From NCBI RefSeq assembly GCF_029227855.1, contig NZ_CP074356.1: 64,000 bases of DNA; one strand, 5' to 3'. The position numbers and the translations under genes are program-made. The DNA comes from Escherichia coli (GTDB lineage Bacteria; Pseudomonadota; Gammaproteobacteria; Enterobacterales; Enterobacteriaceae). The notes below the pieces were generated by a model that worked only from the letters and a program-made list of their open reading frames with translations, searched no databases and was not told the origin of the DNA. This document shows, in pieces, positions 18,035-19,488 of this stretch; position 1 is the stretch's first letter, and every line of letters starts with the position of its first letter.

Positions 18035-18045
18035 ACACCCAAAAC

Positions 18046-18070
18046 AAAGCCCGGTTCGCCCGGGCTCTGC
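18046..18070. terminator. Hairpin between convergent pgaD and phoH (likely terminator, stronger for the phoH direction)
   Basis: aaagcccggttcgcccgggctct; T-rich tract on the minus-strand side. Confidence 0.55.
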
Positions 18071-18083
18071 GCCGATAATACAC

Positions 18084-19007
18084 TTAACTGTATGCATGTA
18101 GCGTACGTTGGCAAAGTGCCGAACGTACGCAATCCTCTTTACCGAATCGGACGATCCCGACCATTTCATCTTCTTCGAAACGTTCCAGCGCGTCACTTAA
18201 TCCGGAGCGCACGCCGCGAGGCAAATCGCATTGCGTGATATCACCGTTGACGATAACCGTCACGTTCTCCCCGAGGCGGGTTAAAAACATTTTCATTTGC
18301 GCGGCAGTCACATTCTGCGCCTCGTCAAGAATGACGACTGCATTTTCAAAGGTACGTCCACGCATATAGGCGAACGGCGCAATTTCCACCTTCCCTATTT
18401 CCGGTCGCAGGCAGTACTGCATAAAGGAAGCCCCTAAGCGCCGGACCAGCACGTCGTAGACCGGACGAAAATAGGGAGCAAACTTTTCTGCGATATCTCC
18501 AGGTAAGAAGCCAAGATCTTCATCGGCTTGCAGAACTGGACGGGTGACGATAATCCTGTCGACATCCTTATGTATCAGGGCCTCTGCCGCTTTTGCTGCG
18601 CTGATCCAGGTTTTTCCGCACCCGGCTTCGCCCGTGGCGAATATCAGCTGCTTACTCTCAATAGCCTTCAGATAGTGCAATTGCGCTTCATTTCGCGCGA
18701 GGATGGGCGAGGTATCGCGACTGTCGCGGGCCATACCAATGGCTTCTACGCCGCTCATCTGCACAAGCGAGGTGACCGATTCTTCTTCACGCTGCTTATG
18801 GCTGCGCGAATCCCGTCTCAGCACACGTTTTGCCTCGCGACGAGCTTTGATCACTGCTTTTTGTCTTCCCATGGAGAGCACCTTGAGTTGTTTGTATTCA
18901 TCACACGCGCCGTTGGCAGCGCGATTATGCGCACGAACATCAGAGGGTTGGCTTCCTTGTAAGCCATAGTTTGCTTTTGGATAAAATGCCGAAAAACGGC
19001 TACGCAC
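18084..19007 (-). CDS. phoH: PhoH, phosphate-starvation-inducible ATPase (start codon uncertain; see findings)
   Basis: Walker A GEAGCGKT; longest in-frame ORF starts at GTG 19007 (307 aa); internal ATG gives MGRQKAVIKARR (262-aa form). Confidence 0.85.
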   Translation of the reverse strand: MRSRFSAFYPKANYGLQGSQPSDVRAHNRAANGACDEYKQLKVLSMGRQKAVIKARREAKRVLRRDSRSHKQREEESVTSLVQMSGVEAIGMARDSRDTSPILARNEAQLHYLKAIESKQLIFATGEAGCGKTWISAAKAAEALIHKDVDRIIVTRPVLQADEDLGFLPGDIAEKFAPYFRPVYDVLVRRLGASFMQYCLRPEIGKVEIAPFAYMRGRTFENAVVILDEAQNVTAAQMKMFLTRLGENVTVIVNGDITQCDLPRGVRSGLSDALERFEEDEMVGIVRFGKEDCVRSALCQRTLHAYS

Positions 19008-19296
19008 ACCGTTTGCGGCGTCGGTAACACGAGTAAAGAGAGGAAGTGAGAAAAATACAGAGTGACGAAGTTGCTACCGGAGGAGAAATCTCCGCGAGTG
19101 GTGGAGCCTTGCTTAACAAAACATTGTCCAGAACAGGACGTTACCATACGCGATCTCCATAGTGACTGACTATCACTGCCGGGAACTTCCGCTGCTACTT
19201 AATAAGTACAACAGATCTCGCATTCATTGCAACAATATATTCACTTATATTTAACTACAAAACACCATTTCAGTGACATTAGTTTCTACTGGAAAG

Positions 19297-19314
19297 ATGA
19301 CAGAGTGATGACAG
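19297..19314 (-). promoter_or_regulatory. Pho box (PhoB-binding site) upstream of phoH
   Basis: Minus-strand reading CTGTCATCACTCTGTCAT: two CTGTCAT repeats with 11-bp periodicity. Confidence 0.7.
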
Positions 19315-19334: not shown

Positions 19335-19488
19335 TTTCAGCAGGATTCGCATCAGGCATCAGCGCACGAACGCCGGATGCGGCGTGAACGCCTGATCCAG
19401 CCTACCAAACCCGCACCGATTGTAGGCATGATAAGACGCGCAAGCGTCGCATCAGGCATCTGCGCACGAACGCCTTATCCGCCTAAAC
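19335..19488. repeat. Cluster of REP (repetitive extragenic palindromic) elements between efeB and phoH
   Basis: Repeated gcatcaggcatc(a/t)gcgcacgaacgcc...gatgcggcgtgaacgcc(t/g)tatcc units typical of E. coli REP/BIME. Confidence 0.8.

Follow-up and report, generated by a model that had tools for sequence, protein, structure and literature searches.

Is phoH, the gene of a phosphate-starvation ATPase, broken in an Escherichia coli genome in which its 5' region is split over two reading frames, or can the split be explained otherwise? We addressed this question in a stretch of 64,000 nucleotides (nt) of E. coli DNA (contig NZ_CP074356.1 of assembly GCF_029227855.1; hereafter the window), in which phoH is read on the minus strand within the efeB–phoH–pgaD locus. 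The original prediction, made from the sequence alone, had considered a genuine 1-bp deletion, a sequencing error or a spurious upstream frame. We find that phoH in the window is intact and that the apparent frameshift is a common natural allele. Comparative analysis further makes it probable that the upstream frame is a leader open reading frame (ORF) which is translated regardless of its frame relative to phoH and precedes a PhoH protein of 262 amino acids (aa), and whose translation would serve phoH expression.

The frame split is a common natural allele

The frame split itself was confirmed. An ORF of 307 aa that includes the PhoH body is opened by a GTG at 19007 and extends to 18084 (minus strand). 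The next in-frame stop upstream is at 19074-19076, and 201 nt are open upstream of an internal ATG at 18872. In the -1 frame relative to phoH, an ATG at 19147 opens the leader ORF (18851..19147, minus strand; MVTSCSGQCF...), which comprises 98 codons and a TGA stop, shares 157 nt with the 307-aa ORF and has its stop 20-22 nt inside phoH. From ATG 19147 to the phoH stop there are 1064 nt, 1 short of a 355-codon frame. In K-12 MG1655, phoH (b1020) is annotated with 1065 nt and 354 aa, the length that the original prediction had given, and this version adds 92 N-terminal residues that are not in frame in the window. Direct alignment bore out the suspected 1-nt difference: the two sequences are not identical across this interval, and the window is net 1 nt shorter than K-12.

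This difference falls into a dimorphic, hypervariable allele block of about 100 bp (19031..19131, minus strand). Identity to K-12 is 77.9% in the block (alignment columns 46-168; ~22% mismatches) versus 98.7% in the 3' leader, and inside the block the window probably differs from K-12 by more than one indel. Eight E. coli sequences show no variation over the ~170 nt that immediately precede the internal ATG, and the phoH coding sequence (CDS) of the window differs from that of K-12 at 9 of 789 positions (1.1%). A query of 171 nt across the block matched in 5,417 of 5,426 complete E. coli genomes. About 36% of these (~1,965 of 5,417) form a window-like class with at least 90% identity, and 3,452 genomes form a K-12-like class with 80–90% identity. 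Among the matches listed, all 15 window-like rows with at least 96.5% identity span 171 nt, and 24 of 25 K-12-like rows span 172 nt. In neither class does the Prokaryotic Genome Annotation Pipeline (PGAP) annotate anything beneath the queried block. Shared by roughly a third of complete E. coli genomes and by other genera, the split arrangement is not a chance event.

Judged by these sequences, the phase difference is an old, mosaic, trans-species polymorphism in Escherichia, because the window haplotype is ~97% identical to that of another Escherichia species (97.3% across the block in Escherichia sp. E1V33), and the divergence between the two main E. coli alleles, 22%, is greater than that of either allele from E. 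albertii. Sub-blocks within 19031-19131 were also seen to recombine among E. coli E69, Escherichia sp. MOD1-EC7003 and others (L008-L013).

The frame difference lies upstream of residue 1 of the PhoH region that is conserved in 80 species, and the 262-aa ORF is uninterrupted. A pseudogenised or N-terminally truncated phoH, as had been considered, was rejected: the conserved part is intact, it gives a full equivalog match (512 bits against a cutoff of 380), and PGAP sets no pseudogene flag. A simple homopolymer slip or an assembly artefact private to this genome was dismissed as well, given the ~22% divergence from K-12 of the ~100-bp block around the gap and the ~1,965 complete genomes that share the variant. 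The homopolymer at 18989-18999 that had been pointed out is indeed a site of 1-nt frame switching, in Citrobacter, Salmonella and E. albertii (T-run, alignment column 195), but it is not the window's own site, which maps to column 134. Across 651 nt the window has a single private difference, a T at 19148 where every other E. coli in the comparison has G; this is position -1 of the leader ATG, which varies between genera. As a strain anomaly, the case amounts to an ordinary, common allele combined with an annotation discrepancy, in that the K-12 reference PhoH (354 aa) and the PGAP PhoH (262 aa) disagree.

PhoH most likely starts at the internal ATG

The 262-aa product encoded at 18084..18872 (minus strand, with stop) matched the NCBIfam equivalog NF007827 with 512.3 bits over model positions 1-253 and residues 9-261, and Pfam PF02562 at residues 57-261 (E = 4e-77). 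Its Walker A motif GEAGCGKT is encoded at 18609-18632, and 260 of 262 residues are identical to the K-12 PhoH body. Across representatives of 80 Enterobacteriaceae species PhoH is 93-100% identical over residues 1-262, and the match always begins at residue 1, MGRQK. The first ~100 residues of the K-12 protein are outside both PhoH models. In both allele classes PGAP calls the 789-nt phoH from ATG 18872, with the same protein accession, WP_000533536.1. The Shine-Dalgarno (SD) sequence AAGGTG of phoH proper (18879..18884, minus strand), 6 nt before ATG 18872, is invariant together with this ATG in an alignment of 81 sequences, and it is kept in most of the distant taxa.

Gene callers give 262, 307 and 354-356 aa versions of phoH, the 307-aa version (P0002) having 1,357 member sequences. 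The GTG that opens this mechanical ORF (19005..19007, minus strand) had been put forward as a possible native start. It is not credible as such and was rejected, as an in-frame start codon at this position, -45, is present in few sequences only. The other suggested start, MGRQK, stood the comparison, being conserved in all 80 species and called by PGAP. The functional PhoH thus most likely starts at ATG 18872, which indicates that the 262 aa constitute the conserved PhoH protein and that the upstream part is a distinct, presumably translated leader. According to a Ribo-RET study (bioRxiv 10.1101/520783), phoH is listed among K-12 genes with a conserved in-frame internal start and raised synonymous-site conservation, and this entry fits two start sites in K-12.

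Codons 2-3 of PhoH are GGA AGA, both rare in E. coli (window 18862-18872). More than 81 species share these two codons without variation, as they do most synonymous sites of the first ~15 codons. Because the synonymous sites of these early codons are invariant, the sequence comparison indicates a nucleotide-level constraint on the phoH initiation region.

The leader ORF is open in whichever frame it occupies

The leader was compared in 81 Enterobacteriaceae sequences with enough upstream DNA. Its SD and start codon, GGAGATCGCG-N-ATGG (window 19158–19145), are conserved in all 81, and the leader ATG is always found 270–282 nt upstream of the PhoH ATG. In the window, the SD sequence GGAG is located at 19155..19158 (minus strand), 7 nt before ATG 19147. 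The frame of the leader ORF relative to phoH varies. It is in frame and fused with PhoH in 54 sequences, for example those of K-12, Enterobacter, Klebsiella, Kosakonia and Buttiauxella. In 22 sequences, among them those of the window, E. albertii, E. whittamii, Salmonella, Citrobacter and one Enterobacter, it is in the −1 frame, has 97–98 codons and ends 22 nt past the PhoH ATG. The remaining 5 sequences, such as those of Pseudescherichia and Kluyvera, carry a −1 frame ORF of 84 codons that ends 23 nt before the PhoH ATG. The exact layout of the window, with 275 nt between the start codons, 98 codons and an end at +22, recurs in Salmonella, Citrobacter, E. albertii, E. whittamii and one Enterobacter.

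In the frame that is used there are no stops, except for one at the very end in the group ending at -23, while the other two frames average ~3 and ~7 stops. Dinucleotide shuffles leave the leader frame open ~5% of the time, and under a stricter null, in which conserved columns were fixed and local composition was kept, 4–13% of shuffles per lineage were open versus 24 of 24 genus representatives observed. Stops close the alternative frame in 46 of the 54 in-frame species, and the third frame is always closed; conversely, the PhoH frame is closed in all 27 out-of-frame sequences. Because phase-changing indels map to different alignment columns, namely 134 (window type), 195 (Citrobacter, Salmonella and E. 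albertii) and 154 (one Enterobacter), the leader frame has switched several times, through at least three independent indel events and each time into an open frame. This openness beyond chance suggests that the leader ORF is under selection. The proposal that the upstream frame is spurious does not agree with the conservation of SD, ATG and openness in 81 of 81 Enterobacteriaceae sequences.

Selection on the leader peptide is not visible

Neither Pfam nor NCBIfam contained a match to the 98-aa leader ORF. In the extension of the 54 in-frame species, column entropy at the three codon positions was 0.83/0.80/0.83, versus 0.13/0.06/0.90 in the PhoH body. The same was seen within genera, where sites are not saturated: variable sites were distributed over the three codon positions as 134/126/152 in the extension (p = 0.27) versus 87/26/676 in PhoH (p = 1e-213), and as 42/44/46 in the out-of-frame leader of Citrobacter. 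A third-position excess, as expected from purifying selection on amino acids, was thus not seen in the 92-residue K-12 extension either across or within genera. These patterns argue that the leader ORF does not evolve as a protein and that the constraint acts at the nucleotide level. An ORF that is kept open in any frame while its peptide is neutral illustrates, in a clean natural case, selection that acts on translation itself and not on the product.

The leader contains covarying hairpins and a C-rich tract

RNAalifold analysis of the 81-sequence alignment, complemented by pair counts, identified local hairpins in the leader. Double-sided changes were found in 173 cells, compared to 48.5 ± 9 in shuffles (none of 500 reaching 173) and 15–60 in slid controls, and compensatory changes occurred in the four helices 3, 5, 6 and 9. 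Directly after the leader start codon, helix 2 (GTCC-TGTTCT-GGAC; 19126..19139, minus strand) is paired in 99.7% of cells, shows one compensatory UA>CG change and is kept in the unclassified Enterobacterales genome CwR94. Helix 3 (CGCGGAG...CTCCGGT; 19076..19096, minus strand) covaries, with double-sided changes in 3 of 6 pairs (e.g. GC:57 and AU:14 at columns 87/108). Helices 5 and 6 are nested hairpins (18985..19022, minus strand) that include the T-run 18989-18999; in helix 5 each of the 6 pairs has changed on both sides (one pair, for example, occurs as CG:25, GC:25, GU:13 and AU:3). Closer to phoH, helices 8 and 9 form a covarying hairpin, CAT-AAT-CGCGCTGC...GGCGCG-TGT-GATG (18899..18929, minus strand), in which helix 9 carries double-sided changes in 3 of 6 pairs (CG:37, UG:27, UA:17; CG:57, UA:18).

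Helix 7 (GGCTT-ACAAGG-AAGCC; 18950..18965, minus strand), which exposes an AAGGA motif, is invariant in the 81 sequences. A scan with the covariance models of Rfam 15 gave no family match anywhere in the leader, helix 7 included, and a terminator-like site on the plus strand (18949-18966) is the reverse complement of this helix. GGA motifs are present in the helix 7 loop (ACAAGGA), at the leader SD (AUGGAGA) and at the PhoH start (AUGGGAAGA); all three are invariant and represent candidate CsrA sites. The last of them overlaps the PhoH start codon.

Between helices 3 and 5 lies a C-rich, G-poor pyrimidine tract of ~54 nt (19023..19075, minus strand) that resembles a Rho utilisation (rut) site. 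Its composition is conserved (columns 109-168: mean C 0.34, G 0.09, T 0.34; C minus G at least 0.17 in 81 of 81 sequences), whereas its sequence drifts freely.

Several other structures were tried and rejected. A globally stable leader fold was not supported (z = -1.1). For a helix masking the phoH SD, RNAalifold proposed a long-range pair CACC/GGUG which showed one-sided changes only. An intrinsic attenuator at GCCGTTTTTCGGC+ATTTTAT was discarded, the U-tract not being conserved outside Escherichia and Citrobacter and the site being missed by a terminator scan. Apart from these candidates, the E. coli ribosome binding site (RBS) of the leader, UAUGGAGA, is complementary to the phoH RBS, UCUCCAUG (window 19150-19160 with 18868-18878). 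The two are predicted to pair in E. coli, both being about 0% unpaired in the ensemble, and the complementarity is weakened in other genera (GCUAUCCAUGG).

A Pho-box-like sequence and a separate leader ORF occur in distant Enterobacterales

A Pho box, the PhoB binding site of the phosphate-starvation promoter P1, was found at 19296..19313 (minus strand; TGTCATCACTCTGTCATC), 149-166 nt upstream of leader ATG 19147 and thus where the original prediction had placed it, at about 150 bp. Its sequence is the same as that of the PhoB site reported for K-12 phoH by chromatin immunoprecipitation sequencing (PMC10294691) and does not vary among 8 E. coli sequences, and its distance to the MGRQK ATG is 441 nt in the window versus 442 nt in K-12. 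Its placement as a -35 substitute upstream of phoH makes the gene a predicted member of the Pho regulon. A sigma-70 promoter scan for a second promoter, P2, found nothing.

Beyond Enterobacteriaceae we compared Yersinia ruckeri, Serratia, Rahnella, Shimwellia and genome CwR94. PhoH is called at 262–271 aa in these five taxa, and in none of them is the leader ORF fused to it. The homologous leader SD and ATG are recognisable in four of the five (Serratia, Yersinia, Shimwellia and Rahnella), where they open an ORF of 70–133 codons; in CwR94 the ORF has 73 codons and begins at a start of different sequence, directly followed by the retained hairpin. None of these distant leader ORFs reaches phoH: they end 21–63 nt short of the PhoH ATG, in any of the three phases. 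The RNA elements are retained as well. In Rahnella the stem of helix 7 is GGUCU/AGACC, with two compensatory pairs, and the AAGGA loop is kept, as it is in the Yersinia and Serratia variants. Yersinia, Serratia and Rahnella also keep the helix 9 hairpin, with stems of other sequence, and the distant taxa contain a comparable C-rich tract that exceeds the maximum of the PhoH CDS.

Separate ORFs in the distant taxa therefore suggest an older arrangement, in which the translated leader ORF would have been separate and of which the K-12-type fusion and the window-type overlap represent two states specific to Enterobacteriaceae. In Yersinia, Rahnella and Serratia, a Pho-box-like sequence, TGTCATTATACTGTAATCATC or TGTCATTATACTGACAT, is found ~75 nt upstream of the leader ATG (L088-L090). 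Because such a sequence is conserved upstream of the leader ORF in distant Enterobacterales, the whole unit of promoter, leader and phoH is suggested to be ancient.

Translation of the leader as a probable requirement of phoH expression

These observations can be arranged into the following model. Transcription from the PhoB-dependent promoter would produce a structured leader of ~400 nt ahead of phoH ATG 18872. Ribosomes would start at the conserved leader SD and ATG and run through the leader up to the phoH start region. Selection would act on the openness of the leader ORF and not on its peptide, and because of this the frame of the leader relative to phoH would be free to change. In K-12-type alleles and most genera the leader would be read in frame, giving the annotated 354-aa 'PhoH', while in the window-type allele (~36% of E. 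coli), Salmonella and Citrobacter it would be read in the -1 frame up to the stop 20-22 nt inside phoH. Because the leader frame is free, E. coli would be naturally dimorphic. Most likely, leader translation would cover the long rut-like leader against attack by Rho or RNase; in addition, leader ribosomes may be delivered to the phoH start or unmask it, and the invariant AAGGA hairpin is a possible protein-binding control point of the CsrA type. That the leader is translated irrespective of frame and serves phoH expression is, as stated above, the probable reading. We regard as possible, though at somewhat less than even chance, the wider proposal that the phoH leader is an undescribed Enterobacterales-wide post-transcriptional unit, that is, a leader ORF which has to be translated, with peptide and frame being irrelevant, and which together with the rut-like tract and the AAGGA hairpin gates PhoH synthesis in phosphate starvation. 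If so, about two thirds of E. coli strains would make the 354-aa fusion besides the 262-aa PhoH, and about one third, including the window, would make a separate 98-aa by-product instead. Since PhoH is a widespread phosphate-starvation ATPase, a conserved, structured and translated leader would imply post-transcriptional control that has gone undescribed.

A number of points weigh against this model. The sampled species are phylogenetically related, so that the counts do not represent independent events. From sequence conservation we infer both the use of the leader ATG in vivo in a window-type strain and the route by which leader translation acts, be it Rho protection, translational coupling or CsrA control. 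The C-rich tract is only moderately above CDS maxima, and the folding energy of the whole leader is unexceptional. Duplex energies of anti-SD and SD are within the shuffle distributions, at inconsistent positions, and predictions of SD accessibility are equivocal. Literature searches on phoH combined with Rho or bicyclomycin gave no link. Moreover, phoH is absent from the supplements of CsrA crosslinking and immunoprecipitation sequencing (CLIP-seq) in E. coli, an experiment that was apparently phosphate-replete, when phoH is weakly expressed. Finally, in E. coli EEC_W5 (NZ_CM130020.1, locus ~500-520; L003) a private deletion of 1 nt (CTCCT-CGG) affects helix 3 of a K-12-type allele, cuts the leader ORF to 44 codons and makes it end 140 nt before phoH. 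This only early-terminating case seen shows that early termination of the leader ORF is at least tolerated. The E. coli dimorphism and this natural truncation strain at the same time offer ready-made genetic tests.

One alternative takes the 354-aa protein to be the genuine ancestral form of PhoH, whose N-terminal extension is disordered and evolves fast; the window allele would then have lost the long isoform and be functionally changed or a hypomorph. It agrees with the curated K-12 annotation, with the 354-aa to 356-aa output of many gene callers and with an in-frame ATG at -90 to -94 codons followed by an open frame in 54 of 80 species from many genera. Kim and colleagues reportedly described, in 1993, a 39-kDa product, and the N-terminal sequence they are said to have obtained matched the 354-aa form, which would count against the model above. 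We nevertheless consider this explanation unlikely, as the extension shows no third-position excess, so that amino-acid-level selection is not visible, and is outside the PhoH equivalog and Pfam models, as the leader is unfused in 27 of 81 Enterobacteriaceae sequences and in all five distant Enterobacterales, and as the internal SD and ATG are invariant. Simple loss of the long form would also not predict that the out-of-frame version is itself kept open. Slightly less credible still is an untranslated, structured 5' leader of the 262-aa phoH, in which open frames are spurious by-products of conserved elements and skewed composition. Such a leader would account for the missing codon periodicity, the covarying hairpins and invariant RNA motif and the empty PGAP annotation, and TGA and TAG are indeed rarer in a G-poor tract. 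However, nulls that preserve composition and fix conserved columns give 4-13% open frames versus 24 of 24 observed, the other two frames of the same sequence carry stops, openness switches frame along with the phase of the ATG in at least three independent indel events, and the canonical SD at 7-nt spacing and the ATG are invariant.

Programmed -1 ribosomal frameshifting might rejoin the leader ORF to PhoH in window-type alleles, such that the long protein is still made. The leader ORF is exactly -1 relative to phoH, more than 200 nt of the window are shared by the two frames, and just before the leader ORF stop there is an A-rich run (GAC AAA AAG). Yet the leader frame of the 27 out-of-frame sequences contains no canonical X_XXY_YYZ heptamer within the fusable zone, and the A-run is interrupted (CAGAAAG) in several out-of-frame species, which makes frameshifting very improbable. 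We give the least credence of all, practically none, to a homopolymer miscall in this genome: the alignment gap does adjoin a T-run (GTATTTTT-CTC, around 19050-19056), but ~1,965 independent complete genomes share the 171-nt configuration, the surrounding block differs by ~22% from K-12, and the window's sole private difference is the substitution at 19148.

Comparison with known leader systems

The window shares with the K-12 PhoH system (psiH, b1020; PF02562; NF007827) the efeB-phoH-pgaD locus, the Pho box and the full-length equivalog match. It differs from the curated K-12 record by the 92 additional N-terminal residues of the latter, for which protein-level conservation was not seen anywhere. 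A leader ORF whose openness is maintained whatever its frame and sequence seems to be undescribed so far, and may be viewed as a variant of known leader-ORF systems.

In secM-secA, translation of a long leader ORF controls the downstream gene. Similarly, the phoH leader ORF is sizeable, has its own SD, ends near the downstream start and is embedded in structured RNA. SecM, however, has a conserved signal peptide and an arrest motif, whereas the phoH leader peptide is unconstrained; furthermore, an SD-masking helix is not supported for phoH, and its leader ORF often overlaps the downstream gene or is fused with it. Leader-ORF-dependent Rho attenuation operates in tnaC-tnaA, mgtL-mgtA and corL-corA, with leader ORFs of roughly 8-40 codons that contain sensing codons or motifs. 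The phoH leader ORF likewise covers or precedes a C-rich, G-poor tract, and by analogy its occupancy by ribosomes would decide on the access of Rho. It differs in its length of 70-133 codons, and a sensing feature was not identified. K-12-type phoH also resembles genes with alternative initiation such as those of IF2 and ClpB, in that two in-frame pairs of SD and ATG would yield the 354-aa and 262-aa products. The phoH extension differs in being free of amino-acid constraint, and a third of Enterobacteriaceae as well as more distant families carry it out of frame or as a separate ORF.

CsrA binds leaders such as those of glgC and pgaA, where GGA motifs occupy hairpin loops and the SD, with the consensus WCANGGANGW. 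The loop of phoH helix 7, ACAAGGAAG, fits this consensus at 9 of 10 positions. The phoH leader differs from these CsrA-bound leaders in that its motifs are candidates and that phoH is missing from the E. coli CLIP-seq supplements; CLIP-seq data from Salmonella mention only phoL.

Flanking features and database records

The spacer between efeB and phoH contains palindromic repeats (window 19339-19483) resembling repetitive extragenic palindromic (REP) sequences or bacterial interspersed mosaic elements. Rfam matches to the REP-like family naRNA4 at 19362-19483, outside the leader, were below threshold (33.8 and 32.1 bits versus a gathering score of 59.5).

Two records in the comparison look mislabelled or contaminated. 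A 92%-identical PhoH is named as Bacillus amyloliquefaciens (P0067), and a locus labelled 'Chryseobacterium sp. 18061' (CACSKA010000011.1; L017) carries an Enterobacteriaceae-type phoH locus that is nearly identical to that of 'Citrobacter sp. 18056' (L018).

Downstream of phoH, a terminator-like GC hairpin followed by a T-run was read directly in the sequence (18041..18066, minus strand; AGCCCGGGCGAACCGGGCTTTGTTTT). It is located between the convergent genes phoH and pgaD and could be a bidirectional terminator.

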